64,000 nucleotides of DNA from Pseudomonadota bacterium (GCA_043767805.1 JAYUGC010000085.1:1-64000), one strand, 5' to 3'; counted from the stretch's first letter, positions 1,862-28,234 are shown. Notes: a model not told the origin generated them from the sequence alone. Made by a program: numbers and translations.

Positions 1862-1870
1862 GCGACGCTC

Positions 1871-2020: not shown

Positions 2021-2031
2021 GAGTCCTCCCA

Positions 2032-2457: not shown

Positions 2458-2528
2458 GTCCGAATATTATGGCTTGCACTGAAGATTGGAGCAATCACCC
2501 AATCGAAGGCTCGGCGACGAGCCAAAAT

Positions 2529-6739: not shown

Positions 6740-6871
6740 GCTTTCCCCCGGATCGGCCATCAGAGGTACCACAACGGTTTCCGGCCCACCAAGTAAAAAC
6801 CCGAAAGAGGCGCGGCGCATTATCGATTCCCTTCCTTGGATTCCACAAACTGGGCAAGGTATAAGGAATCC

Positions 6872-7795
6872 GTGAAAACTCTCATCACCGGCGCCTCAGG
6901 GTTTCTGGGCAAGTACCTCATCGAACAACTCGTCAACGCGCATGGCGCGGCCAACGTGATGACCACCGGGCTCGAGCCGGTTCGCCCGGATCTCACCCAC
7001 TTCGCCTGTAATCTGGAGGATGCCTCCCGGACCCGCGAGGTGGTGACCGAGTCCAAGCCGGACGCCATTTATCACCTGGCGGGCGTGAGCCGGGTGTCCG
7101 CGGAAATTCCTTTCGAGGACTACTTTTCCCGCAACTATCTGACGACCGTCCACCTCGTCCGTTCCGCGGAGCCTTTGAAGCGCCCCGTTCGTTTCTTTTT
7201 CGCGAGCAGCGTCCACGTGTACGGCAACGCCGAGGGAATCGTCGACGAGAGCACGAAACCCGCGCCGGAGAGCGCCTACGGCTATTCCAAGTTCGTCGCC
7301 GAACAGTATCTGCGGGAAGCGACCCAGCGCATCCCGGGCTTCCGCGCCGTCATTGGAAGACTCTACTCCTGCATCGGTCCGGGCCAGGCGAGAGGCTTCG
7401 TCGCCTCCGACATGTGCGCGAAAATCGCGGTCGCCTTGAAAAGCCCGAACGCGCCCTTGAAGACGGGCCCCCTTTCGCCTTACCGCCGTTTTCTGGACGC
7501 GCGGGACGTGGTGGGCATTCTCATCCGGCTCATGGAAGCGTCGCCAACCAACTTCGAGATTTACAACGTGGCCTCCCCTCACGAGCTTCAAATCCGGGGG
7601 CTACTCGATATTTTGTTAAAGGAAGCCGGCATTTCTCCCCGCATCGAGTCGGAAGAAAATAGCGGGACCAACGTCTTCAAAGGCCTGCAGGTCGATACTT
7701 CTAAACTCAGCCGCCTCGTGCCGGCGTCAGCCTTTCGCCCCGTTGAAGATTCCCTGAGGGACATGCTCCGCTGGGAACTCTCTCACCAGGCTTGA
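6872..7795 (+). CDS. NAD-dependent epimerase/dehydratase (Rmd-like sugar-nucleotide reductase)
   Basis: TGASGFLG, YHLAG, YGYSK, GPGQARGFV, RRFLDARDVV; AAGGA SD before GTG. Confidence 0.75.
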   Translation: MKTLITGASGFLGKYLIEQLVNAHGAANVMTTGLEPVRPDLTHFACNLEDASRTREVVTESKPDAIYHLAGVSRVSAEIPFEDYFSRNYLTTVHLVRSAEPLKRPVRFFFASSVHVYGNAEGIVDESTKPAPESAYGYSKFVAEQYLREATQRIPGFRAVIGRLYSCIGPGQARGFVASDMCAKIAVALKSPNAPLKTGPLSPYRRFLDARDVVGILIRLMEASPTNFEIYNVASPHELQIRGLLDILLKEAGISPRIESEENSGTNVFKGLQVDTSKLSRLVPASAFRPVEDSLRDMLRWELSHQA

Positions 7796-7850
7796 AAAGG
7801 CGGCCTCTCCTCCCCTAAGATGGGGGGCTCATTTTAAAAAGGAGAATCAG

Positions 7851-8777
7851 ATGTCGGTGGAAAACGTAGTCATCATCGGGTCCGGTCCGGCGGGGTATAC
7901 GGCGGCGCTCTATACGTCGCGCGCCATGCTGAAGCCCTTATGCATCGAGGGCTACCAATCGGGCGGCCTGCTCATGCTGACCAGCGACGTCGAGAATTAC
8001 CCCGGCTTTCCCAAAGGCATCCAGGGACCCGAGCTAATGGCGAATTTTCGCGCCCAGGCCGAGCGCTTCGGCACCCGCTTCATTCAAAAAGACGCGACCA
8101 AGGTCGACTTCTCTTCGAAGCCTTACAAAGTTTACGTGGGCGATCAGGTCATCGAAGCCCAAACCGTGATCCTCTCGACCGGCGCCGCGACCAAATGGCT
8201 CGGCCTCGAGTCCGAGAAGAGGCTCCTAGGTAAAGGGGTTTCCAGCTGCGCGACCTGCGACGGCGCGTTTTTCCGGGAAGCGAAGCTCATCGTCATCGGC
8301 GGCGGCGACTCCGCCATGGAAGAAGCGACGTTCCTCACGCGATTTGCGTCTCACGTGACGATCATCCACCGGAGCGAGACCTTCCGCGCCTCGAAGATCA
8401 TGCTGGAGCGTGCTCAGAAGAATCCGAAGATTTCCTTCATCATGAACGCCGAGGTCGAAGAGATCGAGGGCGACAACGCGGTCACCGGCGCGCGCATCAA
8501 GGACAAGGCCACGGGCAAAGTCTCGGTGGTGCCTTGCGAAGGCTTCTTCGTCGCCATCGGCCACGAGCCGAACACGAAGTTTTTGAAGGGCCATGTGAAG
8601 CTCGACGAGAAGGGCTACATCGTTTTGGACAAGCGTCCGACGACCGCCACCAACATCGACGGCGTCTTCGCCTGTGGCGACGTACAGGACACCGTGTACC
8701 GCCAAGCCGTCACCGCGGCGGCTTCTGGCTGCTCGTCGGCCATCGACGCCGAAAGGTATCTGGAGAAACACCATTGA
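7851..8777 (+). CDS. trxB: Thioredoxin reductase
   Basis: IIGSGPAGYTAA, CATCDG, GGGDSAMEEA, YRQAVTAA. Confidence 0.97.
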   Translation: MSVENVVIIGSGPAGYTAALYTSRAMLKPLCIEGYQSGGLLMLTSDVENYPGFPKGIQGPELMANFRAQAERFGTRFIQKDATKVDFSSKPYKVYVGDQVIEAQTVILSTGAATKWLGLESEKRLLGKGVSSCATCDGAFFREAKLIVIGGGDSAMEEATFLTRFASHVTIIHRSETFRASKIMLERAQKNPKISFIMNAEVEEIEGDNAVTGARIKDKATGKVSVVPCEGFFVAIGHEPNTKFLKGHVKLDEKGYIVLDKRPTTATNIDGVFACGDVQDTVYRQAVTAAASGCSSAIDAERYLEKHH

Positions 8778-10819
8778 AAACGAGCCCTCGGTTCTCCGGG
8801 CCTTGGGTTTTTGGAATCTCGGCGCTGCTTTTCGCCGGGGGTTGTAGTCATCAAGAAAGAGTGGGCACCGTGATCACTTCCCTGCGCTTCAACCAGTCTC
8901 CGAAAGAGATCGACGCGCTTTGCGCTTCCCAGCAGGAAGCGCTGATAAAGAACATCGAGGCCATCGCCAAGACGCCGGAGTCGAGTGCCAACTTCGATAC
9001 CTCCATCGGCGCTTTGGAGCGGGTGACTGCGGAGTTCGGCGACGCCCTCAACCCGGTGCTTTTTCTAAAATACGTTTCCACCGACCCCGAAGTAAGGGCC
9101 GCCACCGACAAATGCGAGATGGCGGTGGAGAAGCTCTTCGTCGACATCTTCATGCGCGAAGATCTCTACCAGCTCGTCAAAGCCGCCCGCGGCAAAGACA
9201 AGCTCGAGCCCCGGGACGAGCGGCTCCTCGACGAGTACCTGACGGACTTCAAGCGCAACGGCCTCGAGCTCCCAGTGGATAAGCGCAAGATCTTCGGCGA
9301 CAAGAAGAAAGAGCTCGTCGCCCTGGAGAGCGAGTTCTCTAAAAACCTCGTCGAATGGAAAGACTTCCTGGAAGTCACGGCGGCCGAGCTCGAAGGGGTC
9401 GATAAATCCTACATCGAGAGCCTCGAGAAGACCGACAAGGGCACCTATAAGATTTCCATGTCCTATCCGAACTATTTCGGCTTCATGACGGAAGGAAAGA
9501 ACGCTTCCATCCGCCAGCAGCTGCAGAAGAAGTTCGATAACCGCGGCGGCGACAAGAACCGCGAGCTGTTAGAGAAAGCCATCAAGCTCCGCCACGAGAT
9601 GGCGCAGATGCTCGGCTACAAGACCCACGCGCACTTCGTTTTGGAAAAGCGCATGGCGAAAGACCCCGAGACGGTGAAGAAGTTTCTGGCGCGCTTGAAC
9701 AAGAAGCTCAAGCCCAAAGGCCAAGCGGATCTCAAGACGCTCCTCGAGCTCAAGCGCTCGGACCTGAAAGATCCGAAAGTGAAGGAAGTTTATTCCTACG
9801 ATTGGCGCTACTACGAGAACCTGCTCAAAAAGACCAAGTTCAACGTCGATCAGCAGAAGATCAAAGAGTACTTCCCCTTGGACGTCGTCCTAAAGGGCAT
9901 GCTGGAGATTTACGAGACGCTTCTCGGCGTGAAGTTCGAGATCGAGAACGGCACCACCTGGCACAAGTCGGTCTCCTGCTATCAGGTCAAACGGGACGGC
10001 AAGCTAATCTCGAAGTTCTACATGGATCTCTTTCCGCGCGACGGAAAGTACGGCCATGCGGCGGCGTTTACCCTCATCGGCGGGTATCAGCGCAAAGACG
10101 GGTCCTATCAGATTCCGCTCTCCTCTATCGTTGCGAACTTCAATGCGCCGACGGAGTCCAATCCTTCGCTCCTCACGCACGATCAGGTCGAGACGCTCTT
10201 TCACGAGTTCGGCCACATTATGCATCAGCAGCTGACGAGAGCGAAGTTCCCGACATTCTCAGGAACCCGGGTAAAGCGCGACTTCGTCGAAGCGCCTTCG
10301 CAGATGCTCGAGAATTGGGTTTGGGAAAAAGAGTCCCTGGCCCATCTCTCCGGCCATTACAAAGACAAGGCGAAGAAGCTTCCGGACGAGCTCATTCAAA
10401 AGCTCATCGCGGCAAAGCTCATGAACGTGGGCCTCAATTATTTGCGCCAGCTGACCTTCGCGACGCTCGATCTCGAGTACCATTCGGCTCCGGTGGTCGA
10501 TACAACCGCGGTCTATAAGCGGCTCACCAAAGACATCATGATGATTCCGATTCAGGACGGGACGATGCCGCAAGCGAGCTTCGGCCATCTCATGGGCGGG
10601 TACGACTCGGGCTACTACGGCTACCTCTGGTCGGAAGTGTACGCGCAAGACATGTTCACGCGCTTTGAGAAGGAAGGCCTTCTCAACACGAAGACCGGCG
10701 GCGACTACCGCAAATGGATCCTCGAGCCCGGCGGCGAAGTCGATCCGTTCGCCCTGGTGCGCTCTTTCTTGGGCCGCGAGCCCAATGAGACCGCCTTCTT
10801 AAAGAGCGTCGGGCTCTAG
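8774..10819 (+). CDS. M3 family metallo-oligopeptidase (thimet-like), probable lipoprotein
   Basis: FHEFGH, DFVEAPSQMLENW, GYYGYLWSEV; lipobox-like LFAGGC; TTG start overlaps the trxB stop. Confidence 0.92.
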   Translation: MKTSPRFSGPWVFGISALLFAGGCSHQERVGTVITSLRFNQSPKEIDALCASQQEALIKNIEAIAKTPESSANFDTSIGALERVTAEFGDALNPVLFLKYVSTDPEVRAATDKCEMAVEKLFVDIFMREDLYQLVKAARGKDKLEPRDERLLDEYLTDFKRNGLELPVDKRKIFGDKKKELVALESEFSKNLVEWKDFLEVTAAELEGVDKSYIESLEKTDKGTYKISMSYPNYFGFMTEGKNASIRQQLQKKFDNRGGDKNRELLEKAIKLRHEMAQMLGYKTHAHFVLEKRMAKDPETVKKFLARLNKKLKPKGQADLKTLLELKRSDLKDPKVKEVYSYDWRYYENLLKKTKFNVDQQKIKEYFPLDVVLKGMLEIYETLLGVKFEIENGTTWHKSVSCYQVKRDGKLISKFYMDLFPRDGKYGHAAAFTLIGGYQRKDGSYQIPLSSIVANFNAPTESNPSLLTHDQVETLFHEFGHIMHQQLTRAKFPTFSGTRVKRDFVEAPSQMLENWVWEKESLAHLSGHYKDKAKKLPDELIQKLIAAKLMNVGLNYLRQLTFATLDLEYHSAPVVDTTAVYKRLTKDIMMIPIQDGTMPQASFGHLMGGYDSGYYGYLWSEVYAQDMFTRFEKEGLLNTKTGGDYRKWILEPGGEVDPFALVRSFLGREPNETAFLKSVGL

Positions 10820-11090
10820 GCCTTAGAATCACGCCAAATTCATTACGTGGGTCGGGTAGGCGGTTCGGGCAGAATCAAAGTATAGGGAGGCCGAAGCAGG
10901 GGGACGTAGCAAAACCGCCCAGTCTAGCTACGCTAGCTTCGGCCCAGAGTGCGTAAAAATGCCCTCCCACTTTCGTGACACACACCCCGAAAGTGGGCGG
11001 GCTCATTTGCAGCAGTGAGCTGATTTATCTCCGCGGCACGCGTGCAAGACAAGGGTTGCCTCAACCGGCAGTCCTTCCTAGGAGGTAAAC

Positions 11091-11636
11091 GTGAACCGAA
11101 CTTTTCTCTTGGGCGGACTAGCTTCCGCCCTTTTCGTTCAATCTCTTGGTTTCGCGGCAGCCGACAGCTGTGACGACTATTTTCAGCGCCACTACACCGC
11201 GGACTTAGTCCCCCTCAGCGCCTACACCGAGCAAGTGCCCCGCTCTGGCGACATCACGGGATACGACACTTTAAACGTAAGGGTGAAGAACATGGGCAAT
11301 CAGCCTATTCAGTTCGCGGGCTCGGGCGGCTTTCCGGCGAACGCTTTCACTTTAGGCATGCGGCGCGCGGGCCATCGTCGGCCCCCTACGGCCAATCTCA
11401 CCCAGTTCTATCAAACTTCGCTCCCCGTTCCGATGGCGGCGGGGGCGACTCGCGTGATCTCGGTCACCATCCCGCAAGACTCCATCGCGAACTGCGCGAA
11501 GCTGCGGATTACCGTGGATGCGAGACGACAAGCGAACCAGCACGGCTGCAACGTGTTTGGAAATGACGGCGAGGACTTGGTGGTGCAGCGCAAAGGTAAG
11601 CTAAATTGCAGTGCAATCTTGCTGCCCCATCCTTGA
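11091..11636 (+). CDS. Hypothetical secreted Cys-containing protein (CARDB/Ig-like features)
   Basis: GGAGG SD, signal peptide, VRVKNMGN and ITVDA segments. Confidence 0.65.
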   Translation: MNRTFLLGGLASALFVQSLGFAAADSCDDYFQRHYTADLVPLSAYTEQVPRSGDITGYDTLNVRVKNMGNQPIQFAGSGGFPANAFTLGMRRAGHRRPPTANLTQFYQTSLPVPMAAGATRVISVTIPQDSIANCAKLRITVDARRQANQHGCNVFGNDGEDLVVQRKGKLNCSAILLPHP

Positions 11637-11738
11637 ACAAAAGAGCGGCTTCGGGGGCCGGAGGTTGGGGGTCCCTCACTCCCCTCGGTACTCTCGGAGC
11701 CGCTCTAACCTTCCTCGAGGAAGGCTCGTCCCGAGAAA

Positions 11739-11774
11739 TTAAAAAGGCCCGCCTCCTCGAAAGGAAGCGGGCCT
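11739..11774 (-). terminator. Intrinsic terminator of DUF2090 gene
   Basis: aggcccgc...gcgggcct stem followed by a T-run on the minus strand. Confidence 0.75.
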
Positions 11775-11789
11775 CAAACGAACTAGAAA

Positions 11790-12728
11790 CTACTTCTGGG
11801 CCCGCAGATCGAGCCAGAGACGGCAGAAGGCGCCGTAAGTCGCGGCAATCTGATCGGACGCCTGCTCGCGAGTGATCTTGCCTTCCTTGTGCGCTTTGAG
11901 CGGTTCCCAAAACACGGTACGGCCGACGGCAAAGCCGATGACTCCCGGAACTTTCGCTCCAGCTTTGAGCCATTCGCGGACTTTCGCGTCGTTTTCTCCG
12001 CGGCCCAGGACGATGGTGCCGACGTTGGCGCGGCCGCCCTGGTGGGTAGCGTCGACGACCTTCTTGTAATCCGCTTCGCGATCGAGGCCTTCGAGCTTCC
12101 AGACGTCTGGCTCGATGCCTTTCGAGTAGAGCTCGTTGATGGCCTTAATCATCAAAGTCGGGCGCATTTCGAGGTCATACGTCTTTTTGTCGCCGTTGCA
12201 TTGCGCGAGCTGGGCTTCCGTGTGAGGCACGAGGAGCTCGAACATGAACTTACGATTAACCGTGTCGAGGTGCCGGCTCAGTTCGGCAAGCTTCAGGGCT
12301 TGGCGATCGTTGGTGGTTTTATCCGCTTCGGGATTGTAGCGAACGAGAACCTTCACGAGATCCGGGGCGAACTTTTCGATGTGGGCGCCGTAGTCTTTGC
12401 CGTACTCGAAATCGAACTCGTCCTGGCCGCTTTTTTCGACGCAGAGGCTCGTACAAAAACCCTTCGCCTTGGCGCGCTGAAGGACTTCCTTGCCGAACTG
12501 CTCGTCCACGAGAACTCCCATCCATTCCTTGGGGAGACCGGCTTGGACGGCTTTTTCAAAACCTTCGTAAATAATCGTCTTAAAAGAGGAAATCGTCTCA
12601 GTTTCCTTCGGCGTCGGCACGCCGTGGATACCGAACATCTTGCTCTGGAACGAGCCGCGGTGGTCAAAAGGCAAAATCAGCAGCTGCTTGGTGTAACCCC
12701 GGGTCTTCTTGGTCGCGGTCGAACTCAT
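11790..12728 (-). CDS. Stand-alone DUF2090 (IolC C-terminal-like, aldolase TIM barrel) protein
   Basis: ILPFDHRGSF, VKVLVRYNP, GIEPDVWKLEG, VLGRG, GFAVGRTVF. Confidence 0.85.
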   Translation of the reverse strand: MSSTATKKTRGYTKQLLILPFDHRGSFQSKMFGIHGVPTPKETETISSFKTIIYEGFEKAVQAGLPKEWMGVLVDEQFGKEVLQRAKAKGFCTSLCVEKSGQDEFDFEYGKDYGAHIEKFAPDLVKVLVRYNPEADKTTNDRQALKLAELSRHLDTVNRKFMFELLVPHTEAQLAQCNGDKKTYDLEMRPTLMIKAINELYSKGIEPDVWKLEGLDREADYKKVVDATHQGGRANVGTIVLGRGENDAKVREWLKAGAKVPGVIGFAVGRTVFWEPLKAHKEGKITREQASDQIAATYGAFCRLWLDLRAQK

Positions 12729-12855
12729 GAGTCTTTGCTCCTTATAGGGCGTGGCGGATGAAAAGTAGGCTTCAGAGGTAATCGAAAAACGCTTAGGAAT
12801 CAACTCCCGGGGCGTGTGGGAAACCCGCGAGAAGTATGCTAATTTTTCCTTACCG

Positions 12856-13425
12856 ATGACAATTACGCCGCTGGACCGGTTTCTTCGATTTCTCGACGAG
12901 CAGGACCCAGCCGCTATTCGGCAAGGTTCCCTCGATCATTTCCTGGCGACCGAGCGTGTCGAGCCCGACGATTTGCTGTCTTTCGTGTTTTTCCGCGAAG
13001 ACACCTACGCGAGAAACCTCGTGTACCGCACTGAGCACATCGAGCTCCTGATGCTTTGCTGGCTTCCCGGCAACCGGACTCCCATTCACGATCACGGCGG
13101 CCAGCGCGCCTGGATTTCCATGCACACGGGCGAGCTCACCTTCAATACCTACGCGCCGATCATCGACGAGCGCAAGCTTCCGGTCCTCACCAACGATGCC
13201 GAGCCTCAGATTGCGGGCGAGCTCCTCTATATCGACGATAGCATCGGGATCCATTCCATCGTGAACGCCTCGCGAAAGCCCGCCATCTCGATGCACCTCT
13301 ATGCGGCGCCCATGAAGAAATGCCGGATGTGGGATGAACGGGCGAAGCAATTCGTTTGGAAAGAGCTTACTTACTTCACCCAGAATGGGCGCCAAGCTCG
13401 CACCCATGTTCTGGAGCTCGACTAG
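12856..13425 (+). CDS. Cysteine dioxygenase family cupin
   Basis: YARNLVY, CWLPGNRTPIHDH, GIHSIVN, AISMHLYA. Confidence 0.85.
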   Translation: MTITPLDRFLRFLDEQDPAAIRQGSLDHFLATERVEPDDLLSFVFFREDTYARNLVYRTEHIELLMLCWLPGNRTPIHDHGGQRAWISMHTGELTFNTYAPIIDERKLPVLTNDAEPQIAGELLYIDDSIGIHSIVNASRKPAISMHLYAAPMKKCRMWDERAKQFVWKELTYFTQNGRQARTHVLELD

Positions 13426-14320
13426 CTCCCGAGACTCTTCCCACATGCAGGAAAGCGCCCCCGGCCACGGTCTTGTAGTGAGCGAGGTATTTCTCCGCCA
13501 TCCCTCGGTAGTGAAAATGCGTCTCTGCCCTCAGCCGGCAGGCGGTTGGATCGAAGTGTGAGAGAGAAGCGACCGCCTGAACGAACTCGTCCTCGGAAGC
13601 GCAGATTTTCCCGACGTCCGAAGTCACTAGCTCCGGCAAAGATCCAAAGGGACTGGCAAGCACCGGCGTTCCGCTGGCGAGCGCTTCGATGACCGCGATG
13701 CCGAAAGGCTCGTGCCAAAGCACGGGAAAGAGAAGCCCCTTCGCGCCCGCGACGATACCGCGCTTTTTCTCGCCGCCCAACATCCCTTCCCAGCGCGCCG
13801 CGCCCCAAGGGTTCGCCCACCGCCTGCTTCCGCCGACGATGCGCAAAGTATGGCGGGACTTAGCGGCCATTCGGATCGCGCCCGAGACGTTTTTCACCTT
13901 CCAAGAGGCCTTTGCGAGAAAGACGAGGTAATTGTCTTTGCGCGCGCGAAACTGGGACTCTGTGGGGTCGATTCCGTTATGTACGAAGTGAGTCGCCCCG
14001 TGCCGCTCGGCGTGGTTTCGGCTTACAAAGATCGTATTGCGTAGAAACGTTTCACCCACCCTACCGTTTCCTCCGATGGTAACGACGTAGGGAAAAGTCG
14101 GCTCCGCGGCCGGCGTATTGAAGTAATGAACCGCTTCGAAAGTTTCCGGGCGAGCGTTTTGCACGGCGCGCGCGAAAGGAAACCGGCTGCCCTCTCGGCA
14201 TTCCACCGCTACGTCGTGGCCTAGCTCGGCGAGCCCTTTAGCGAGCCACCAAACCACCCGTTCGGTACCGCCGTAAGCGACCACGGGAAAAAGCGCATGG
14301 TGTACGAGAAGAATCTTCAA
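13376..14320 (-). CDS. Glycosyltransferase family 4
   Basis: YGGTERVV, EPFGIAVIEALASGTPVL, GSLPE. Confidence 0.9.
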   Translation of the reverse strand: MKILLVHHALFPVVAYGGTERVVWWLAKGLAELGHDVAVECREGSRFPFARAVQNARPETFEAVHYFNTPAAEPTFPYVVTIGGNGRVGETFLRNTIFVSRNHAERHGATHFVHNGIDPTESQFRARKDNYLVFLAKASWKVKNVSGAIRMAAKSRHTLRIVGGSRRWANPWGAARWEGMLGGEKKRGIVAGAKGLLFPVLWHEPFGIAVIEALASGTPVLASPFGSLPELVTSDVGKICASEDEFVQAVASLSHFDPTACRLRAETHFHYRGMAEKYLAHYKTVAGGAFLHVGRVSGASRAPEHGCELGAHSG

Positions 14321-20978: not shown

Positions 20979-21141
20979 CGCTAAGTATTAATTACACGAT
21001 AATAAGTCATTGATATCAGGTGACAATTTTCGTCACCGGGCAGGTAAGGCTTGGAAAAACAAGGAGGATGGAGCGGGTTTCGTTAACGGGATACGCCGAA
21101 GATAAAGGCAACGAACCTCGTGTTATTCTTGTTCTCACCCT

Positions 21142-22374
21142 ATGAAAACAGGCCCCCGCCAGTCCCCCGTGCCGAGCTTCGACGAGTTCCTCGAAGGCTT
21201 CCGGCAGAAGGGGGAAAGGGTCATCGTTCAGACGGTTATCGGCCGGTCGGGCTCCTTCTTCCTGCAGTCCCTCTTCGATGACCATCCCGAAATGCTGATG
21301 TTTCCGGGCGCGCTTTCTTTTCAGGAAAGCATTGCCCCGGCCTTAGAAAACAATCCGGAATCATGGCCCGCTCAGATAGAAAGTTTATGCAACGCCTGGC
21401 ATAAGGCCGTGCACCAGAACATGGCGGCGAAGCTCGGAAAGAACCGGGACGAGAAGACCGAGCTCTCCGGGACCGAGCTGGTGAGCGTGATGCGAAACGC
21501 CCTCGGCGCGAGAGTCGTCACCCGAAAGCTGCTTTTTCTAGCTCTTCATTACGGAGTCGGGGTTTGCCTCAAACGCGACTTGCGCCGCATCAGCGTGATC
21601 TATTCTCACGAGCACGTTCCCGAGCTGCGCGACGATCATATCCTTCCGATGAGGCAGGATTTTCCCAGCGCCCTTTTCCTTTGCACGGTTCGCGACCCGC
21701 GCTCCAACTACCTCTCCGCGCTAAGAATGAAGGAAGGGCTCGCGCAATTTCCGCAGTGGGCGGAGTGGCGCTATGAATATTCCGTGTCCTACACGGCATG
21801 GAGCTGGTACCGGTTCGGCCTGTCCCAGGTAAACGCGCGCGCGGAATCTTTCTTGCTGATTCGCCTCGAAGACCTTCAAGGGAAAGGAATCCCTTACGTG
21901 AAGGCGCTGTGCGAAAGGCTTGGGCTTGCCTTCACCGAAAGCCTTCTCGAGACTACTTTCGCCGGCAAGGCATGGTGGGGAGATGCCTTCTCGCCCCCTT
22001 CGACTGGGTTCCGTCCGACCGCGAACGCGGCGAGCTGGAAAAAGAAACTGCCGCGCTTCAAGGCGGCAGTGCTCGAGATTCTCCTCGCGCGTGAGATGAA
22101 AGCCCTTGGCTACGAGCGGTGGATAAAACCGCTTACCCCGGCGTGGTGGATGGCTTGGCTCACCTTTCCCCTATGGGCTTGGGACGACAATAAGCAGCTA
22201 CTCACCAGGGAGTACCACGTCTATCTCAGACGAACGGGCGTCTCGGTATGGCGAAGTCTTTTCGCCAGTGTCTTGAAAGCGATGCGCTTCAGCGTGAGCC
22301 TGCTGAATCAAACCTACTTCGTGCGGCGGGACTATTCGAAAGTGCCGGGCACGATTTTCAAGACAGGCAATTAG
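21142..22374 (+). CDS. Sulfotransferase-fold protein (candidate phosphoramidate transferase)
   Basis: 5'-PSB loop GRSGSFFLQSLFDDHP, 3'-PB motif VRDPRSNYLS, IRLEDL, TFAGKAWWGD. Confidence 0.8.
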   Translation: MKTGPRQSPVPSFDEFLEGFRQKGERVIVQTVIGRSGSFFLQSLFDDHPEMLMFPGALSFQESIAPALENNPESWPAQIESLCNAWHKAVHQNMAAKLGKNRDEKTELSGTELVSVMRNALGARVVTRKLLFLALHYGVGVCLKRDLRRISVIYSHEHVPELRDDHILPMRQDFPSALFLCTVRDPRSNYLSALRMKEGLAQFPQWAEWRYEYSVSYTAWSWYRFGLSQVNARAESFLLIRLEDLQGKGIPYVKALCERLGLAFTESLLETTFAGKAWWGDAFSPPSTGFRPTANAASWKKKLPRFKAAVLEILLAREMKALGYERWIKPLTPAWWMAWLTFPLWAWDDNKQLLTREYHVYLRRTGVSVWRSLFASVLKAMRFSVSLLNQTYFVRRDYSKVPGTIFKTGN

Positions 22375-23147
22375 GCCGCTTTCTTTCCCGCCGCCTTCGC
22401 TTTGGCTTGGGCCACCCAAATGCGAGTGGTATAGGGGACCTGAACGGTCTCGAGTTTCATCTCCACGAGGATCTTGCGGATGCCATGGATGATGGCGGGG
22501 AAGCGGGCGCCGGCCTGACGCTGCAGAGTCGCATGGGATTCCCACGCTCTCACGCAATCGTCCTGACTTTGCGTGTGGGTCACATTTCCTTCAAGCCGCT
22601 TCACCTCGTGGAAAAGCGCGCTCGAGTTGATGACCTCGACTTGATCTTCGCGGCGGGTGCCGTACCCATACTCGGGAATCTCGCTCTTGATGAAAGCTTC
22701 GAGCCGCGCCTGAACCGGATCTTTGAGATCACGGTGGTTCCACATGCCCGCGAACCAACCCGACGGCTTTAAGATGCGAACCGTTTCTTGGAGCGCCTTC
22801 GCTCGGTCGGTAACGTTGAAGGAAGAGCCAAAGGTGACGAGATCGAACGCGCTTTCCTTACGGCCGGTACTCTCTCCCGTTCCTTCGAACCAGGTGACGT
22901 TTTTGAAATCCTTGGTCCGTTCGCGGCCACCCTCGCGCATGGCATCGTTGGGCTCCACAGCGGACACCTGGTACTGGCCCCGGGCGAGATGCAGCGTCAA
23001 GTGCGCCACTCCAGCTCCAACGTCACAAACCGCCGCTCCTGGCTTAAGGCCGACGGCGGAAAACATCTGACTAAGCGCTTTCGCGGAATAATCAGGCCGT
23101 TTCAAGTAAGCCTTGGCGAGATCGGTGTAGTTCCATTGAGTTTTCAT
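22371..23147 (-). CDS. Class I SAM methyltransferase, Cj1419/Cj1420-like (MeOPN methyltransferase type)
   Basis: WNYT..AKAY..RPDY, DVGAGVA, VEPNDAMR, VTFGSSFNV, MWNHRDL, RREDQ, YTTRIW. Confidence 0.82.
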   Translation of the reverse strand: MKTQWNYTDLAKAYLKRPDYSAKALSQMFSAVGLKPGAAVCDVGAGVAHLTLHLARGQYQVSAVEPNDAMREGGRERTKDFKNVTWFEGTGESTGRKESAFDLVTFGSSFNVTDRAKALQETVRILKPSGWFAGMWNHRDLKDPVQARLEAFIKSEIPEYGYGTRREDQVEVINSSALFHEVKRLEGNVTHTQSQDDCVRAWESHATLQRQAGARFPAIIHGIRKILVEMKLETVQVPYTTRIWVAQAKAKAAGKKAA

Positions 23148-23683
23148 CGGGCAGCGGCCTTTCGTACGAGAGGGAAAAAGTGATTCCAGATCTCATCCAC
23201 CAGATCGTGCGGAGTACGGCTGCCGTCGTTCTGGAGATGAAGCTCCGGGTTCTTGGGATTCTGTACTTCAAAGTGAATGCCGGCGACGTCGCCCACGGTT
23301 CCGCTAGCCGCCTGCGCGTAAATCTTTTTTGGGTCTCTTCCCTTGAGGACTTCGATCGGCGCCTCGATGAAGATTTCGCGATAGGAAGCGATATTCGCCC
23401 GGTTCCACTGCTGACACGAATGAAAGAGGGAAATGGTCGCACAGACGACGTCCACGCCTTGATCGGAGAGGAGCTTGCACAGACGGGCGTTGCGCATGGC
23501 GCTCTTCAAACGGCTTTCGTTGGTATGACCCAGATCGTTGCCGAACACCTCACGGAGAATATCCCCGTCCAAGTAAACGGCATTGCCGCCTTGAGCTTTC
23601 AGGCGCGCGCAAAAGAGCGACGCAAGCGTGGATTTCCCGACGCCGGACATTCCGGTGAACCAATATACCGATCCAGTTTTCAT
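23144..23683 (-). CDS. APS-kinase-family kinase, Cj1415-like cytidine diphosphoramidate 3'-kinase
   Basis: WFTGMSGVGKST P-loop, LDGDILR, ATISLF, RDPKKIY; MeOPN gene context. Confidence 0.8.
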   Translation of the reverse strand: MKTGSVYWFTGMSGVGKSTLASLFCARLKAQGGNAVYLDGDILREVFGNDLGHTNESRLKSAMRNARLCKLLSDQGVDVVCATISLFHSCQQWNRANIASYREIFIEAPIEVLKGRDPKKIYAQAASGTVGDVAGIHFEVQNPKNPELHLQNDGSRTPHDLVDEIWNHFFPLVRKAAAR

Positions 23684-23687
23684 GTGA

Positions 23688-23697
23688 GGGGGGGGGG
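23688..23697. repeat. G10 homopolymer tract
   Basis: Ten consecutive G (C10 on minus strand), 4 nt upstream of the kinase ATG. Confidence 0.9.
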
Positions 23698-23890
23698 TGA
23701 CCTAGAAAGGAAACGAGAAAGTACTTTTCATTTTAGCGGAAATTTTCAAAACGAGGGGAGAATTTACCTATCGCGCCGTGGCTTTGCGGTCGGGAGGATT
23801 TACCGCACAATGTAAATTGGTCTCTTTAGAGCCCTCAAGTCCTCTCGGCCCACTCCCCTTCTCCCTACTTTCCCGAACCAATAAGTGCCC

Positions 23891-26257
23891 ATGAGAAACC
23901 AACGCTCCCTTGCCTTCGTGCGGGTTGATTCACTCGATTTCGGCACCAAAGCCGAGACGCTCGGCGCCCTTTCCGGCGTCCTCAAGTCCGCAACGATCCT
24001 GCCGCAACTCCATTTCACTTTGGAAAGGTGGAAAACGGAACAGGCGGAAGTCGTCAAAGAAGTGGAAGCGTCCGGCTGGCTCGCCGCCCCCGGCGCCGCC
24101 GTGCGAAGCAGCGCCCGGGCCGAAGACGGCAAAACAAGCTCCCTCGCCGGACATTTCCTATCTCTCCTCAATGTCAGCGATCGTACCGCTGTCATCCGCG
24201 CGATCGATCAGGTATTTGCTTCCTACGGAAAGCCCACCGACGCCGAACAGGTGTTAATCCAGCCCATGGTGAAGCAGGTGGCGGCTTCCGGCGTTGCTTT
24301 CGGCGTCGAGCCGAGTAGCGGCAGCTCCTACTTCGTCGTGAACTACGACGACCATTCAGGCTCCACGTCCTCGGTGACTAGCGGCGGCTCGTCCCACTTA
24401 AAAACCTTTTATTGTTACGAGGACGCCGGAGTCGAATTACCTCCGTTGATGAACGGAGTGGTAACGCTACTGAAAGAGCTAAGAGAGCTGTTTGGAACCA
24501 ACCATCTGGATATCGAGTTCGCCACCGACCGCGCGGGGAAAGTGTTCTTGCTCCAGTGCCGGCCTCTGACCGCCGCGAAAGCCGCGGAAGACAAGGGCGT
24601 CAATGAAGCGCTGACCCGCATTGAAGCAAAGTTCGTAAGCTTGAGCAGCCGCCACCCTTACCTCCTCGGTAACCGCACCGTCTTCGGGGTGATGCCCGAT
24701 TGGAATCCCGCGGAAATTGTCGGCATTCGCCCGAGGCCTCTCGCCCTTTCGCTCTACCGCGAGCTCGTCACCGACAGCATCTGGGCTTATCAAAGAGACA
24801 ACTACGGCTATAGGAACTTACGCAGCTTTCCTCTGCTCGTGGACTTTTGCGGGCTACCCTATATCGATGTGAGAGTCAGCTTTAACTCCTTCGTTCCCGA
24901 GGACCTCGAAGAGGCTTTGGGAGAAAAGCTGGTCAACTACTACATCGACAAGCTCATTCAATTTCCCACGCATCACGACAAAGTCGAGTTCGAGATCGTC
25001 TACACCTGCTACACGTTCGATCTCCCGAAACGACTGGAGTCTTTGGATAAGGCCGGGTTCAGCGAGAAGGAACGCAACCGGCTCAAGGATTGCCTGATCA
25101 AGCTGACCAATCGGATCATCGACAAGGACAAAGGGCTTTGGAAAAAAGACATCGAGAAGATCGGCATTCTCGATAAACGCCTGGCTCAAATCCGGGAAAG
25201 CCAGCTCGACACGACCTCTAAAATCTACTGGCTCCTCGAAGATTGCAAACGCTACGGCACGCTTCCTTTCGCGGGACTCGCTCGCGCGGGTTTCATCGCG
25301 GTGCAGATGCTGCGCTCTTTGGTGGCCGTGGGAGTGCTTTCGCGTACCGAGTACGATCGCTTCCTTTCCTCTCTCGAAACGGTCAGCTCCCGTCTGAGCC
25401 GGGACTTCAGCGCTTGTTCGCAAAACGAGTTTCTCGCGCGCTACGGGCATTTGCGGCCGGGCACTTACGACGTCCTCTCTCCCCGCTACGACGAAGCTCC
25501 CAACAAATATTTTGACTGGTCCAAGCGGACTCATTGCGCCACGAAGGAATCAGAGCCGTTCGTCCTGAGCCTCGATCAGTTGCGCAAGATCGAAACTCTC
25601 CTGAAAGATCATCACCTCGAACACGACATCTTGGGCTTCTTCGACTTCATCCGTTCCGCCATCGAGGGACGGGAGTTCGCCAAATTCGTTTTCACGAAGA
25701 GCTTGAGCGAAGGCCTGTCGCTTTTAAAAACTCTCGCTTCCGAGCACGGGCTTTCGACCGAAGACTGCTCCTTCCTCGACATCTCGGCCGTTCGCCATCT
25801 CTATGCCTCGAGCGAAAGCCCGCGGGAAACGTTGGAGCGAAGTGCGAAAGAGGGACGTGAGGCCTACGAGCTCACCAAACAGATCACGTTACCCCCGCTC
25901 ATGGTGCGCCCCGAGGACGTCTGGGCCTTTGAGGTCCCCGCGAACGATCCCAACTTCATCACTCAGCGCCGCGTGTCCGCGCCCGTAGTCGAAGCTTCTC
26001 AAGACAAAGCTCTTTTCAAGAACGCGATACTTTTCATTCCGAGTGCCGACCCCGGATACGACTGGATTTTTTCCCACGGCATCGCGGGCCTCGTCACCAT
26101 GTTCGGCGGGACTAACTCCCACATGGCGATCCGCGCGGGAGAGCTCGACATTCCGGCCGTCATCGGCGCGGGAGAGCAGCTCTACCATCTCTGGTCGAAA
26201 GCGGCGGAGATCGAGGTCGACTGCTTGAATCGCCAAGTCAGGATTGTCCGGGGATGA
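23891..26257 (+). CDS. PEP-utilizer/PPDK-like L-glutamine kinase, Cj1418-like
   Basis: FGTKAETL, VRSSARAED..SLAG, LLQCRPL, VMPDWNPAEIVG, YGHLRPGTYD, ADPGYDW, phospho-His motif GGTNSHMAIRA. Confidence 0.88.
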   Translation: MRNQRSLAFVRVDSLDFGTKAETLGALSGVLKSATILPQLHFTLERWKTEQAEVVKEVEASGWLAAPGAAVRSSARAEDGKTSSLAGHFLSLLNVSDRTAVIRAIDQVFASYGKPTDAEQVLIQPMVKQVAASGVAFGVEPSSGSSYFVVNYDDHSGSTSSVTSGGSSHLKTFYCYEDAGVELPPLMNGVVTLLKELRELFGTNHLDIEFATDRAGKVFLLQCRPLTAAKAAEDKGVNEALTRIEAKFVSLSSRHPYLLGNRTVFGVMPDWNPAEIVGIRPRPLALSLYRELVTDSIWAYQRDNYGYRNLRSFPLLVDFCGLPYIDVRVSFNSFVPEDLEEALGEKLVNYYIDKLIQFPTHHDKVEFEIVYTCYTFDLPKRLESLDKAGFSEKERNRLKDCLIKLTNRIIDKDKGLWKKDIEKIGILDKRLAQIRESQLDTTSKIYWLLEDCKRYGTLPFAGLARAGFIAVQMLRSLVAVGVLSRTEYDRFLSSLETVSSRLSRDFSACSQNEFLARYGHLRPGTYDVLSPRYDEAPNKYFDWSKRTHCATKESEPFVLSLDQLRKIETLLKDHHLEHDILGFFDFIRSAIEGREFAKFVFTKSLSEGLSLLKTLASEHGLSTEDCSFLDISAVRHLYASSESPRETLERSAKEGREAYELTKQITLPPLMVRPEDVWAFEVPANDPNFITQRRVSAPVVEASQDKALFKNAILFIPSADPGYDWIFSHGIAGLVTMFGGTNSHMAIRAGELDIPAVIGAGEQLYHLWSKAAEIEVDCLNRQVRIVRG

Positions 26258-26862
26258 AGCTCATCGCCGTAACCCAAAGGGTGGCGCAAGTCGGCGAGCC
26301 CCCCGAGCGACGAGACACCCTCGACCAACGCTGGCTGGCCTTTCTTTCTCATTGCGGCTTCGTGCCCTTACTCGTCCCGAACCATGCCGCCAGTGCGGCT
26401 CAGCTCCTCTCCCAAGCAAAGCCCTCCGGCATCTTGCTTACGGGTGGTGACGATCTCGTGGCCTATGGAGGAACCGCGCCAGAGCGAGATGAAGTCGAAC
26501 GGCTATTCATCGAAAAAGCCATCAGCGCGAAATTGCCTTTGCTTGGTGTCTGCCGCGGAATGCAGGCCCTGCAGCACTTTCATGGCGTGAAGTTAGGCCC
26601 AGTGCCGGGGCATGTAACCCCTTCTCACGGCATCGTGCTTCAAGGGCGTCCGGAGAAAGTGAACAGCTATCACCGGCTCGGCACTAAGCTTGCTGGAGGA
26701 GGGCTGGAGATTTGGGGAACCGCGGAAGACGGCGTCGTGGAAGCGGTCCGCCATTTCACTAGCCCACTCGCGGGAATCATGTGGCACCCCGAACGGGTCT
26801 CGCCCTGCTCGGATAGAGACGTCGCGCTTTTTCGCACGCACTTCGGAGATCCCTCGAAATGA
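26254..26862 (+). CDS. Peptidase C26/GATase, Cj1417-like gamma-glutamyl-CDP-amidate hydrolase
   Basis: IAVTQR, ERRD.LDQRW, LTGGDD, GVCRGMQ, VNSYH, MWHPER. Confidence 0.87.
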   Translation: MKLIAVTQRVAQVGEPPERRDTLDQRWLAFLSHCGFVPLLVPNHAASAAQLLSQAKPSGILLTGGDDLVAYGGTAPERDEVERLFIEKAISAKLPLLGVCRGMQALQHFHGVKLGPVPGHVTPSHGIVLQGRPEKVNSYHRLGTKLAGGGLEIWGTAEDGVVEAVRHFTSPLAGIMWHPERVSPCSDRDVALFRTHFGDPSK

Positions 26863-27629
26863 AAGCCATCGTACTCGCCGCGGGACTCGGCACCAGGCTC
26901 ATGCCCCTCACCGCGGATCGCCCCAAGTGCTTGGTCGCTCTGAGAGGCAAGAAGCTATTTGATTACCAGCGCGAGACGTTTCGCAAGAATGGCATCGACC
27001 AGCTCATCGTGGTCACCGGCTATTTCGCGGAAGCCTTTCGGCCTTATCAGGTATCGACCTGCTTCAATCCGGAGTTCGCGACCACCAACATGGTTCGCTC
27101 TCTCTTTTGCGCGGAAGCGGAGCTTACCGGGGACATCGTCATTTCCTATGGCGACATCATCTACGAGGAGCGAGTGCTGAAGACTCTCCTGGATACTCCG
27201 GGCGACGTGGTCGTCGGGGTCGACAAAAACTGGATGAACCTGTGGCAGGTCCGCATGGAAGACGTTCTGGCGGATGCCGAGACCATGAAGGTCAATGCGA
27301 AGGACCAGATTTTAGAGCTCGGAAAAAAGCCAAAGTCCTTGGACGAGATTCAAGGCCAGTACATGGGCCTCATCAAATTTTCCGCAAAGATAATGCCGGA
27401 AATTCGTAAGCTCTATCACTCGCTCGATCCGTCCGCTCTCTATGACGGTAAGCCACCCGCCAAGATGTTCATGACGTCTTTTTTGCAGCTGGTGATCGAT
27501 ACCTTGTGCCCGGTCCAAGCGGCGTTCATTCAAGGCGGATGGCTCGAAGTGGACACGGGACAAGACCTGGCGCTGTACGAAGCGCTCGAGCCGAAAAGCG
27601 CGCTCTTCGACTTCTCTTCGTTTCGTTAA
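26859..27629 (+). CDS. LicC-like nucleotidyltransferase, Cj1416-like CTP:phosphoglutamine cytidylyltransferase
   Basis: LAAGLGTRLMPLT.DRPKC, TNMV, ISYGDI, DAET, ELGKK, QYMGL, MTSFLQ, WLEVD. Confidence 0.87.
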   Translation: MKAIVLAAGLGTRLMPLTADRPKCLVALRGKKLFDYQRETFRKNGIDQLIVVTGYFAEAFRPYQVSTCFNPEFATTNMVRSLFCAEAELTGDIVISYGDIIYEERVLKTLLDTPGDVVVGVDKNWMNLWQVRMEDVLADAETMKVNAKDQILELGKKPKSLDEIQGQYMGLIKFSAKIMPEIRKLYHSLDPSALYDGKPPAKMFMTSFLQLVIDTLCPVQAAFIQGGWLEVDTGQDLALYEALEPKSALFDFSSFR

Positions 27630-28234
27630 GGCGCCCAGGCGAGGGAGAACTGCGGGAGAAAAATGCCGCGGTTTCTGAAGACGCCGATCTTCGCTTCGAG
27701 ACCCATGTGCACGGTCGGGGCGAGTGACGCCTTGATACCCGGTCTAAAGTAAGCCGCGAGGCCGAGCAGCGTTTCGTGGGCGCGGTAAACGTTGGGGCCC
27801 ATCCGGTTGTCTCCGCTAGCCAGATACGCCGCGGGTCCCACGGAAAGCCCGAGATAGGGAACGATGCCCGTCCAACCCATGACTGGGAAATCCCAGAGGA
27901 AGGTGGGCAAGGCCTGAACCAGCAGGGCGGAGCTTGCCGCGGGCGTGAAAGGGAAAGGCTTTAGGGGGTCGACGCCAGCCGCGTAGTCCCACTGATAGAC
28001 CCCCACGTCGAGACCCATCCAAAAGGGAGTCGGAATGCCGCCCCCTCGGGCGAAAGCCACCTCGGCACCCCAGCCCACCTGGCCATCGAAAAGTCCCAGG
28101 CCGCTTCCCAGGGACAGCTCCCAGCGGGTACCCGCGTCGGGCCGGATGAGCGAGCTTTGGGATTCAAAGGCCGGTAAGGAGAGGGTCCAAAGAGCGAGGG
28201 CCAAAGCCCCTTTCCAAAGATACGCGCGGTTCAT
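27626..28234 (-). CDS. Outer-membrane beta-barrel protein
   Basis: Signal peptide; amphipathic strands; PYLGLSVG; aromatic C-terminus. Confidence 0.6.
   Translation of the reverse strand: MNRAYLWKGALALALWTLSLPAFESQSSLIRPDAGTRWELSLGSGLGLFDGQVGWGAEVAFARGGGIPTPFWMGLDVGVYQWDYAAGVDPLKPFPFTPAASSALLVQALPTFLWDFPVMGWTGIVPYLGLSVGPAAYLASGDNRMGPNVYRAHETLLGLAAYFRPGIKASLAPTVHMGLEAKIGVFRNRGIFLPQFSLAWAP

Follow-up and report, generated by a model that had tools for sequence, protein, structure and literature searches.

Gene content and boundaries of the locus

The window analyzed here, a 64,000-nucleotide stretch of a Pseudomonadota bacterium genome (GCA_043767805.1, JAYUGC010000085.1:1-64000), carries six genes within 21142-27629 (Table 1). 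The original prediction for this DNA described five of them, all of which are present where it placed them, but its text left out the sixth, a Sulfotransfer_3-like gene inside the same range. Adjacent genes overlap by 4 bases within each arm, and the Sulfotransfer_3-like gene converges on the leftward arm formed by the methyltransferase and small kinase genes. The nearest relatives of this sixth gene lie in MAGs titled Pseudobdellovibrionaceae, in agreement with the earlier description of the host as Bdellovibrionota-like.

Table 1. Genes and sequence features of the locus; positions are counted from the first base of the window.
Feature	Position	Strand	Length	Family match or remark
Palindrome GGTGACAATTTTCGTCACC	21019-21037	+		Left edge of insert
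Accessory cassette	21038-27624		6.6 kb	Presence/absence polymorphism relative to same-genus genome G001
Sulfotransfer_3-like gene	21142-22374	+	410 aa	PF13469, 39 bits (cut-off 27)
SAM methyltransferase	22371-23147	-	258 aa	PF08241 and related families
APS-kinase-like gene, cytidine diphosphoramidate 3'-kinase type	23144-23683	-	179 aa	APS_kinase; NF004041
G10 homopolymer	23688-23697			4 bases upstream of small kinase start codon (C10 on small kinase strand)
L-glutamine-kinase-type enzyme	23885-26257	+	790 aa from GTG; 788 aa if ATG 23891	PPDK_N and PEP-utilizers domains
C26/GATase-type hydrolase, gamma-glutamyl-CDP-amidate hydrolase type	26254-26862	+	202 aa	Peptidase_C26/GATase
Cytidylyltransferase, phosphoglutamine cytidylyltransferase type	26859-27629	+	256 aa	NTP_transf_3, PF12804

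The limits of the insert emerged from a blastn comparison with contig C61 of G001, where homology runs up to 21037 and resumes from 27625. G001 has ~28 bases in place of the insert, and the flanking genes are syntenic and keep their order. The palindrome at the left edge is single-copy in the window, and the empty site in G001 carries a copy with one base changed. In a search of the G001 genome, the kinase was not found, and the sulfotransferase-like gene had no relative there. Because G001 has the same flanks minus exactly these six genes, their grouping is not due to chance.

Enzymes of a probable phosphoramidate donor pathway

In Campylobacter jejuni, the donor for O-methyl phosphoramidate (MeOPN) is made by the L-glutamine kinase Cj1418, the cytidylyltransferase Cj1416, the gamma-glutamyl-CDP-amidate hydrolase Cj1417, and the cytidine diphosphoramidate kinase Cj1415, according to the available text of PMC11800397. 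The window encodes the same four families, with kinase, hydrolase, and cytidylyltransferase in the same order and a related methyltransferase alongside, and its donor enzymes share 29-44% full-length identity with Campylobacterales cluster proteins. They also retain the phospho-histidine motif and the Cys-His-Glu triad. In contrast to C. jejuni, the small kinase and methyltransferase are divergently transcribed, the hydrolase scores under its curated cut-off, and the host, a sediment bacterium, resembles Pseudobdellovibrionaceae.

The best curated model for the 790-aa kinase is NF004508, which it matches with 974 bits (cut-off 501) over model positions 7-788 of 789; Campylobacterales MeOPN-cluster kinases score 841-1106 bits on this model, and true PEP synthase models reach at most 69 bits on the window protein. 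Identity to the Campylobacterales kinases is 42-44% over ~780 aa, and relatives at 55-59% identity are named "glutamine kinase" by JGI. The PF00391 domain (residues 712-780) contains GGTNSHMAIRA, with His 746, by analogy with PEP-utilising enzymes, presumably being the phosphorylated histidine; the SHMAIRA motif that had been noted in a PPDK-like kinase is indeed present, at residues 745-751. Assignment to the L-glutamine-kinase type (Cj1418) is supported, and the enzyme is predicted to carry out ATP-dependent N-phosphorylation of L-glutamine. An APS-kinase domain is fused to 34 of the best 120 kinase relatives, which ties this domain to the pathway.

The small APS-kinase-like enzyme exceeds the cut-off of NF004041 (165 bits against 127) but stays below that of the CysC model TIGR00455 (118 bits against 138.7). 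Its counterparts in the Campylobacterales clusters, to which it is 35-36% identical, have the same pattern (236-275 and 116-133 bits, respectively), whereas the genome's own CysNC reverses it (103 and 220 bits). In a quickly built tree in which several branches were flagged as long, the small kinase falls inside a 16-row group with moderate support (SH-aLRT 87-90), every row of which is kinase-linked.

The hydrolase gene directly follows the kinase, overlapping its stop by 4 bases, a position kept in six other loci (L009, L011, and L073-L076). Among NCBIfam models its best match is NF045546 (gamma-glutamyl-CDP-amidate hydrolase) at 101 bits, below the 250-bit cut-off, with PuuD next at 45; hydrolases of the Campylobacterales comparison clusters, 29% identical to it, exceed the cut-off with 325 and 315 bits. 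An alignment of 7 sequences shows no variation at Cys100, His178, and Glu180. The cytidylyltransferase is 41-42% identical over ~250 aa to proteins of two Campylobacterales loci (L073 and L076), and its identity to the relatives' enzymes is 45-46%. An NCBIfam search returned generic models only, and no specific curated model, for both the window and Campylobacterales cluster cytidylyltransferases, and among solved structures LicC (1jyk) is the closest relative.

We consider it highly improbable that these are generic metabolism genes (PEP synthase, CysC, PuuD, LicC) that merely happen to be co-located. Searches of solved structures do give only PEP synthase, PuuD, LicC, and APS kinases, but the PDB matches are weak or partial (35 bits for PEP synthase; residues 1-107 only for LicC), while agreement with the curated models and with Campylobacterales cluster proteins is much stronger and extends over the full length, and the genes move as one insert with their order kept across phyla. 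The same comparison bears on the original prediction of a MeOPN precursor pathway, which true PPDK, CysC, LicC, or PuuD as best matches would have contradicted: NF004508 and NF004041 were passed, the CysC model was failed, and NF045546 outscored PuuD. Models and identities alike match Campylobacterales MeOPN-cluster proteins, in support of that reading.

Judged by family membership, the cassette very probably makes the activated P-N donor known from the Campylobacter capsule. The cytidylyltransferase would join the kinase product to CMP from CTP, the C26 hydrolase would take glutamate off to yield CDP-amidate, and the APS-kinase-like enzyme would phosphorylate the 3'-OH to give 3'-phospho-cytidine 5'-diphosphoramidate, which structurally resembles the sulfate donor PAPS.

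The methyltransferase is 40% and 33% identical to two methyltransferases of the Campylobacterales locus L073, and homologues occur in 13/16 kinase-containing genome-contig loci as well as in L074 and L075. It may O-methylate the transferred group to give methyl phosphoramidate. Campylobacterales clusters differ in having two methyltransferases upstream of the kinase, both resembling the single one in the window. Knockouts of Cj1419 and Cj1420 left the capsule unchanged, as stated in the accessible part of PMC11800397, so the role of the methyltransferase is not established even in C. jejuni.

The sulfotransferase-fold protein as candidate transferase

The AlphaFold model of the 410-aa protein (pLDDT 80.8) resembles sulfotransferases: the top 13 PDB matches from Foldseek at E <= 0.001 all belong to this class, the best of them (E 2.7e-5 and weaker) being PAPS sulfotransferases. 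The motifs GRSGS (residues 34-38) and RDPRSNYLS (184-192) are conserved, and the donor 5'-phosphate and 3'-phosphate motifs are retained. Fold, gene linkage, and phylogeny together suggest that this protein is the likely phosphoramidate transferase. It would bind 3'-phospho-CDP-amidate as sulfotransferases bind PAPS and pass the phosphoramidyl group to an acceptor hydroxyl, releasing 3'-phospho-CMP, and would thereby stand in for the MeOPN transferases of DUF2972 type that Campylobacter has and this genome lacks.

A competing explanation accepts the donor pathway and regards the 410-aa protein as an ordinary PAPS sulfotransferase travelling along with it, for example sulfating the same glycan, with another, unrecognised protein acting as the transferase. 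The Sulfotransfer_3 match and the fold itself fit this explanation. The genome is able to make PAPS, encoding CysD and CysNC on contig C123, and kinase-linked clades have GRSG(S/T) and R(D/E)P...S motifs in common with relatives beside ATP sulfurylase, so the sixth gene could be such an enzyme. The fold and the 3'-phospho-nucleotide motifs are also common to Sulfotransfer_3-type PAPS sulfotransferases such as CurM, the olefin-synthase ST domains (4gbm/4gox), and the tyrosylprotein sulfotransferases; the 410-aa gene differs from these in being linked to phosphoramidate-donor genes rather than to sulfate activation and in belonging to a clade apart from sulfurylase-linked relatives.

Gene linkage, clades, and co-occurrence argue against PAPS as the donor. 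Of 53 genome-contig loci encoding relatives of the sulfotransferase-like gene, 16 have the kinase within 10 kb, and these come from MAGs and isolates titled as at least six phyla, and sulfate-activation genes were found neither in the cassette nor near any of these 16 loci. At one locus (L012), the sulfotransferase-like gene comes immediately after the small kinase gene and is read in the same direction. The family tree was likewise quickly built and has several branches flagged as long; in it, the 13 relatives whose context is different (ATP sulfurylase, a pyruvate-kinase barrel, an unassigned 600-aa gene, or APS kinase alone) all fall into a single clade (SH-aLRT 97) with zero kinase-linked members. 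The kinase label requires 6 changes on this tree against a shuffled mean of 13.9, and none of 500 shuffles gave a value as low. The sulfurylase-linked clade has the motif STW..W(H/Y)GDR, and kinase-linked relatives mostly have STF..WW. At the genome level, co-occurrence tracks the kinase, which is encoded elsewhere in 4/5 genomes whose relative falls in or beside the kinase-linked clades with no kinase nearby, and in 0/5 genomes sampled from the other-context clade; it was not found in G197, a genome of a kinase-linked clade. The 6.6-kb insert holds no other transferase candidate, and a second, better-scoring Sulfotransfer_3 gene elsewhere in the genome is available for PAPS-dependent work. 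On this balance, we regard an ordinary sulfotransferase as unlikely.

The known MeOPN transferases, Cj1421 and Cj1422 (NF058596; DUF2972, PF11186), have no counterpart by sequence in this organism. Neither the window protein nor its relatives match NF058596 or PF11186, and NF058596 found no match in the whole genome, for which markers indicate 100% completeness; the control genomes of the same search likewise had none. In the Campylobacterales comparison loci, the large proteins encoded nearby score 750 and 680 bits on NF058596, "O-methyl phosphoramidate transferase" (cut-off 600), and since the hydrolases there also pass NF045546, these loci are genuine MeOPN clusters. Of four Campylobacterales kinase loci fetched, two have a sulfotransferase-like gene beside methyltransferase genes and the other two have NF058596 genes there. 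The sulfotransferase-like partner is not universal, since a search with a positive control found it in none of five other kinase-bearing genomes (G003, G020, G079, G165, and G077), two of which have NF058596 instead.

The two kinds of protein may nonetheless be alike in structure as well as in proposed job and, in two Campylobacterales genomes, gene neighbourhood. For the model of one Campylobacter NF058596 protein (pLDDT 85.3), the 50 entries listed by VIA-align were sulfotransferases only; the best listed match, NDST1, aligned 230 residues within model residues 228-596 at rmsd 4.3 and Z 9.6, a Z of ~9 being only middling on VIA-align's own notes. A sulfotransferase-like core is predicted for both, and each carries a Gly-rich loop as well as an R-D-P motif. 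The 410-aa protein differs in lacking a helical N-terminal part of ~230 residues and in matching Sulfotransfer_3, which DUF2972 proteins do not, and hhalign gave a probability of 2.7% between the two families, which is not significant. We tentatively propose, at somewhat less than even odds, that the sulfotransferase fold serves generally to transfer phosphoramidate from the PAPS-like donor 3'-phospho-CDP-amidate, with ~400-aa soluble enzymes in many phyla and DUF2972 transferases as a divergent form.

With the candidate transferase included, we put at roughly 60% the probability that the six genes of the insert form a self-contained accessory cassette for decoration with phosphoramidate (P-N) groups.

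Acceptor, possible switching, and distribution

No kps genes (kpsMTED/CS) were found in the window, as previously noted, and the lack of a capsule locus around the cassette is a further point in which the host departs from C. jejuni; elsewhere in the genome, Capsule_synth has a single weak match (contig C187, 29 bits). We therefore also considered that the cassette might yield a phosphoramidate-bearing small molecule, or a lipid or protein modification, rather than a decorated surface polysaccharide. Such an outcome would fit an insert without glycosyltransferase, flippase, or exporter, whose neighbours are secreted proteins and lipoproteins of no known family and the housekeeping tRNA ligases hisS/aspS. 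The nearest sugar-nucleotide and glycosyltransferase genes, at 29-14320, end ~7 kb away and are present in cassette-free G001 too. In relatives, however, these genes occur in the company of glycosyltransferases, sugar-modifying enzymes, and an ABC exporter (L010), or beside GT4 genes, and the only characterised system of this kind decorates a capsule (PMC11800397 and PMC9561416). A non-polysaccharide product thus seems improbable to us, and a surface glycan is our default guess for the acceptor; a methylated product on a glycan we rate as an even chance.

Across 4.5 Mb there are 3 homopolymers of G or C with 10 or more bases, the G10 tract before the 3'-kinase gene among them. Contigs of two other runs have G9 instead and are otherwise identical over 1289 bases. 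The G10/G9 tract may act as a switch of P-N decoration.

Homologues of Cj1416-1418 outside Campylobacter have been described in archaeal Borg elements, whose MeOPN-like gene set was inferred from predicted structures (bioRxiv 10.1101/2024.11.05.622173). That set belongs to hosts in another domain of life, and the accessible portion of the preprint does not mention a 3'-kinase, a methyltransferase, or a sulfotransferase-fold partner. The original prediction called the modification rare, but the pathway is not rare outside Campylobacter; it is widespread. If the sulfotransferase fold does serve generally to transfer the phosphoramidate group, environmental bacteria would commonly carry P-N decoration on their cell-surface molecules, which would then be no Campylobacter speciality.

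The cassette and its boundaries

We identified six open reading frames between positions 21142 and 27629 of the window (see the table below). Successive genes of the plus-strand trio overlap by 4 bases, as do the small-kinase and methyltransferase genes on the minus strand. Open reading frames and domain matches confirmed the five genes of the original prediction, together with the SHMAIRA motif at residues 745-751 of the large kinase, but that description had passed over a sixth gene inside the same interval, which encodes the 410-aa Sulfotransfer_3 protein. The hydrolase retains Cys100, His178, and Glu180.

Features of the window, its genome, and related loci
Feature	Location	Strand	Basis
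Sulfotransfer_3 protein, 410 aa; converges on methyltransferase	21142-22374	+	domain search
SAM methyltransferase, 258 aa	22371-23147	-	domain search
Small kinase, APS_kinase, 179 aa	23144-23683	-	domain search
Large kinase, PPDK_N/PEP-utilizers, 790 aa	23885-26257	+	domain search
Hydrolase, Peptidase_C26/GATase, 202 aa	26254-26862	+	domain search
Cytidylyltransferase, NTP_transf_3, 256 aa	26859-27629	+	domain search
Palindrome, 19 bases	21019-21037		
Similar strings at insert edges	21019-21037, 27625-27660		
G10 run	23688-23697		
Sugar-tailoring genes: carbamoyltransferase (NodU/CmcH type), SxtJ-like protein, DAO oxidoreductase, RmlD-like reductase, two NDP-sugar dehydratase/epimerase genes, GT4	29-7795, 13376-14320		
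Second Sulfotransfer_3 domain, own genome	C157:36318-37001		
Cassette of ~600-aa protein without Pfam family, APS-kinase-like, Methyltransf_25, sulfotransferase-like, GT4	L022, L024, L025, L027, L029 (about 6.7-12.4 kb in each)		
Pyruvate-kinase barrel + PUA_2 + ATP sulfurylase fusions, 723-737 aa	L015:7268-9439, L016:11127-13340, L017:7196-9400, also L021		
Glutamine-kinase-type proteins, 1017-1021 aa	L010:9803-12856 (G003), L011:3817-6882 (G020), G079 (open frame 1017 aa)		
Inositol-monophosphatase/CysQ-family gene, apparently two ORFs, 174 + 97 aa	L009:8175-9001 (G019)		

The limits of the cassette emerged from comparison with G001, a genome of the same genus in which the genes flanking the cassette are found in conserved order at 47-87% protein identity. 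The large kinase was not found in G001, which is 93% complete, and a profile search there returned no relative of the sulfotransferase-like gene. DNA homology between the two genomes stops at position 21037 and picks up again at 27625, points that lie about 28 bases apart in G001; the insert thus starts directly past the palindrome, which is also present at the empty site of G001, and ends at the cytidylyltransferase stop. It contains all six genes and nothing more, and the six form one unit. No integrase was seen, the insert has no recombinase gene, its base composition is not deviant, and the secreted proteins that flank it do not recur beside the cassette at other loci. The insert edges carry short similar strings, GGTAAGGC on the left and GTTAAGGC on the right.

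The G10 run (C10 on the strand of the small-kinase gene) precedes the start codon of that gene by 4 bases, in the expected position of the ribosome-binding site. The 4.5-Mb genome has three G/C runs of at least 10 bases and six of at least 9. Two other runs of the same study yielded contigs with G9 that are otherwise identical over 1289 bases, at a depth of about 5-6; these two records do not differ in length and possibly represent a single data set. By analogy with Campylobacter O-methyl phosphoramidate (MeOPN) genes, the tract is possibly a phase-variable switch, while the difference between G10 and G9 could also be an assembly error.

Probable donor enzymes of the Campylobacter type

A search of solved structures gave no close relative for the four donor enzymes, matching them only to generic PEP synthase, PuuD, LicC, and APS kinases, so we compared them through curated models and a set of 151 Campylobacterales genomes, an order chosen as holding a Sulfurospirillum MAG. 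The large-kinase model NF004508 was passed in eight of these genomes (841-1106 bits). At two of the kinase loci, L073 and L076, the C26 proteins score 325 and 315 bits on NF045546, "gamma-glutamyl-CDP-amidate hydrolase" (cut-off 250), and large neighboring proteins, one carrying the source name Campylobacter volucris DUF2972 protein, reach 750 and 680 bits on NF058596, "O-methyl phosphoramidate transferase" (cut-off 600). Judged by these named models, both are genuine MeOPN clusters. The window's large kinase is 42-44% identical to its counterparts there, the cytidylyltransferase 41-42%, the small kinase 35-36%, and the hydrolase 29%, and the methyltransferase is 40% and 33% identical to the two methyltransferases of the Campylobacterales clusters, in every case over essentially the full length. 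We take the gene order in C. jejuni to be Cj1415-Cj1422.

The model scores support reading the window genes as a Campylobacter-type pathway. As had been predicted for a donor pathway of the Cj1415-Cj1418 type, the large kinase passes NF004508 with 974 bits (cut-off 501), and no PEP synthase model gives it more than 69 bits. For the small kinase, the score on NF004041 is above threshold (165 bits; cut-off 127) and that on the CysC equivalog below it (118 against 138.7 bits), a pattern shared by the small kinases of the Campylobacterales clusters and reversed in the organism's own CysNC, which adjoins CysD on contig C123 (CysC equivalog 220 bits, NF004041 103 bits). In a quickly built small-kinase tree with long branches flagged and moderate support (SH-aLRT 87-94), the window protein falls in a 16-row group made up exclusively of kinase-linked genes, Campylobacterales included, and the CysNC domain groups with kinases adjoining ATP sulfurylase. 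The assignment of the hydrolase to the Cj1417 type held in part: no model fits it better than NF045546, yet its score of 101 bits is far under the cut-off of 250.

In one study, Cj1415-Cj1418 are described as jointly making CDP-phosphoramidate 3'-phosphate, MeOPN as being lost in Cj1421/Cj1422 mutants, and the capsule of C. jejuni as unchanged in Cj1419/Cj1420 knockouts (PMC11800397). From family membership, the first four steps in the window's organism very probably yield, in turn, glutamine phosphate, CDP-glutamine, CDP-amidate, and 3'-phospho-CDP-amidate. O-methylation, suggested by the conserved methyltransferase, would come before or after transfer. The sugar-tailoring region of the window is a possible source of a glycan for the cassette to decorate; its GT4 gene, the sole gene of the region compared, is also in the cassette-free G001.

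A sulfotransferase-fold candidate for the transfer step

The sixth protein has few close relatives, four at 34-38% identity in a word-indexed search; an exhaustive search returned 1070 representatives at E <= 0.001, of which 17 reach E <= 1e-30. Its model (pLDDT 80.8) matches PAPS-dependent sulfotransferases (E 2.7e-5 to 7e-4; TM 0.33-0.61 on target), including the ST domains of CurM and olefin synthase and tyrosylprotein sulfotransferases. The GRSGS loop (34-38) and RDPRSNYLS (184-192) are conserved family-wide and presumably bind the donor at its 5'- and 3'-phosphates, as in sulfotransferases.

To this fold is added a pattern of linkage. Among 53 loci encoding sulfotransferase-like relatives, scanned with one genome per species, 16 have a large-kinase homologue within 10 kb, usually accompanied by the hydrolase, cytidylyltransferase, small kinase, and methyltransferase, and 27 have an APS-kinase homologue. 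The phyla and families named in their titles are Pseudobdellovibrionaceae, Elusimicrobiota, Melainabacteria, Spirochaetota, Bacillota, Pseudomonadota, and Campylobacterota. Neither CysD nor CysN was found near the 53 loci by tblastn, and the only ATP sulfurylase near them is part of fusion proteins at some of the loci. We built a quick tree, with long branches flagged, of 43 proteins, namely those of the 40 loci with an extractable ORF, the window, and two Campylobacterales loci, L074 and L075. All 13 proteins from other contexts form one clade (SH-aLRT 97) with no kinase-linked member, and the window protein sits with two Pseudobdellovibrionaceae proteins (SH-aLRT 100). Where a protein in or beside the kinase-linked clades has no kinase nearby, the kinase is encoded elsewhere in four of five genomes; the count for genomes of the other-context clade is zero of five.

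Of four Campylobacterales loci examined, L074 and L075 have a sulfotransferase-like gene adjoining the methyltransferase genes, and in the other two NF058596 genes occupy that place; in L074, a 366-aa DUF2972 gene also adjoins the sulfotransferase-like gene. The pairing is frequent but not universal, since a profile search run with a positive control found no sulfotransferase-like partner in five other kinase-bearing genomes (G003, G020, G079, G165, and G077), two of which have NF058596 and three a kinase with an N-terminal cytidylyltransferase-like extension. Profile comparison found no similarity to the sulfotransferase-like family in a 373-aa unannotated protein of locus L009 or a 754-aa protein of L011.

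An alignment of 19 sequences gave a model of a Campylobacter NF058596 protein with pLDDT 85.3. Foldseek alone gave no matches at E <= 0.001, its weak top rows being mostly sulfotransferases. The 50 entries listed by VIA-align were all sulfotransferases, the best being NDST1 (Z 9.6, a value near 9 being middling by VIA-align's own grading; rmsd 4.3; 230 aligned residues; model residues 228-596). A profile comparison of the sulfotransferase-like family with DUF2972 proteins was not significant (probability 2.7%). A common fold is therefore likely, and common ancestry possible.

It is possible that the 410-aa protein is an ordinary PAPS-dependent sulfotransferase, because the genome encodes PAPS synthesis and the donor-binding motifs are the same across kinase-linked and other clades and so fail to separate them. 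The reading that we favor is that this protein transfers the phosphoramidyl group and releases 3'-phospho-CMP. Such a transfer is suggested by the sulfotransferase fold, by the resemblance between the donor and PAPS, and by the linkage data, as well as by a whole-genome model search that found no NF058596 gene in the organism's own genome. That genome also encodes a second, better-scoring Sulfotransfer_3 domain (65 bits) within an 811-aa open frame on contig C157, presumably a genuine PAPS-dependent enzyme that draws on CysD/CysNC of contig C123.

Variant clusters and wider significance

Related loci hold several variants. A recurring cassette around a ~600-aa protein is found in Pseudomonadota and Myxococcota MAGs; its methyltransferase differs from the window type, and its APS-kinase-like genes group in the tree with phosphoramidate-type kinases rather than CysC. 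No glutamine kinase was found in G204, which holds L024 and was the one such genome searched, and this cassette possibly provides a different way of making a methylated donor that resembles PAPS. The ATP-sulfurylase fusions of Chloroflexota and Omnitrophota MAGs adjoin an APS kinase and a sulfotransferase-like gene, and these loci are plausibly true PAPS systems. The first ~230 residues of the 1017-1021-aa kinases resemble the pathway cytidylyltransferase (26-31% identity), which is encoded separately as well; in L011, a Glyphos_transf gene lies directly 3' of it. The CysQ-family gene of L009 stands between the hydrolase and cytidylyltransferase genes and, by analogy with the removal of PAP by CysQ, could encode an enzyme that removes the by-product 3'-phospho-CMP. 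The same genome, G019, has its sulfotransferase-like gene and methyltransferase elsewhere, at L013.

The kinase family is large, with at least 6820 relatives at E <= 0.001 among 8000 scored candidates. Full-length identity is 54-60% for the best 120, of which 14 have the JGI name "glutamine kinase" and 34 carry a fused APS-kinase domain. NF004508 was passed in 4 of 41 relatives of the window genome. A 2019 review places MeOPN sugars so far only in Campylobacter (PMC6429109), one from 2022 treats the glutamine kinase as specific to C. jejuni (PMC9561416), and genes resembling Cj1416-1418 are described from archaeal Borg elements in a preprint (10.1101/2024.11.05.622173). In 2025, the donor-pathway laboratory listed the decoration steps and transfer as future work (PMC12409886). 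Among the papers covered by our literature search, none was found to join a sulfotransferase-type enzyme to phosphoramidate transfer, and the search returned nothing combining O-methyl phosphoramidate with Bdellovibrio.

To this the window adds an insertion/deletion with clean limits that takes in the sulfotransferase-like gene, a shared site beside methyltransferase genes within Campylobacterales, tests of clade membership and co-occurrence, and the G tract. The six-gene cassette would be a simple setting in which to reconstitute the missing transfer step, with a small, probably soluble sulfotransferase-fold partner and a cassette-free sister genome for comparison, and the same system would suit the ordering of transfer and methylation. 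If the proposed transfer is true, a PAPS-binding fold would have been reused for phosphoryl-type transfer. MeOPN in Campylobacter is described in the 2022 review as a phage receptor and a phase-variable surface mark (PMC9561416), and a similar role in a lineage of predatory bacteria would therefore be of ecological interest.
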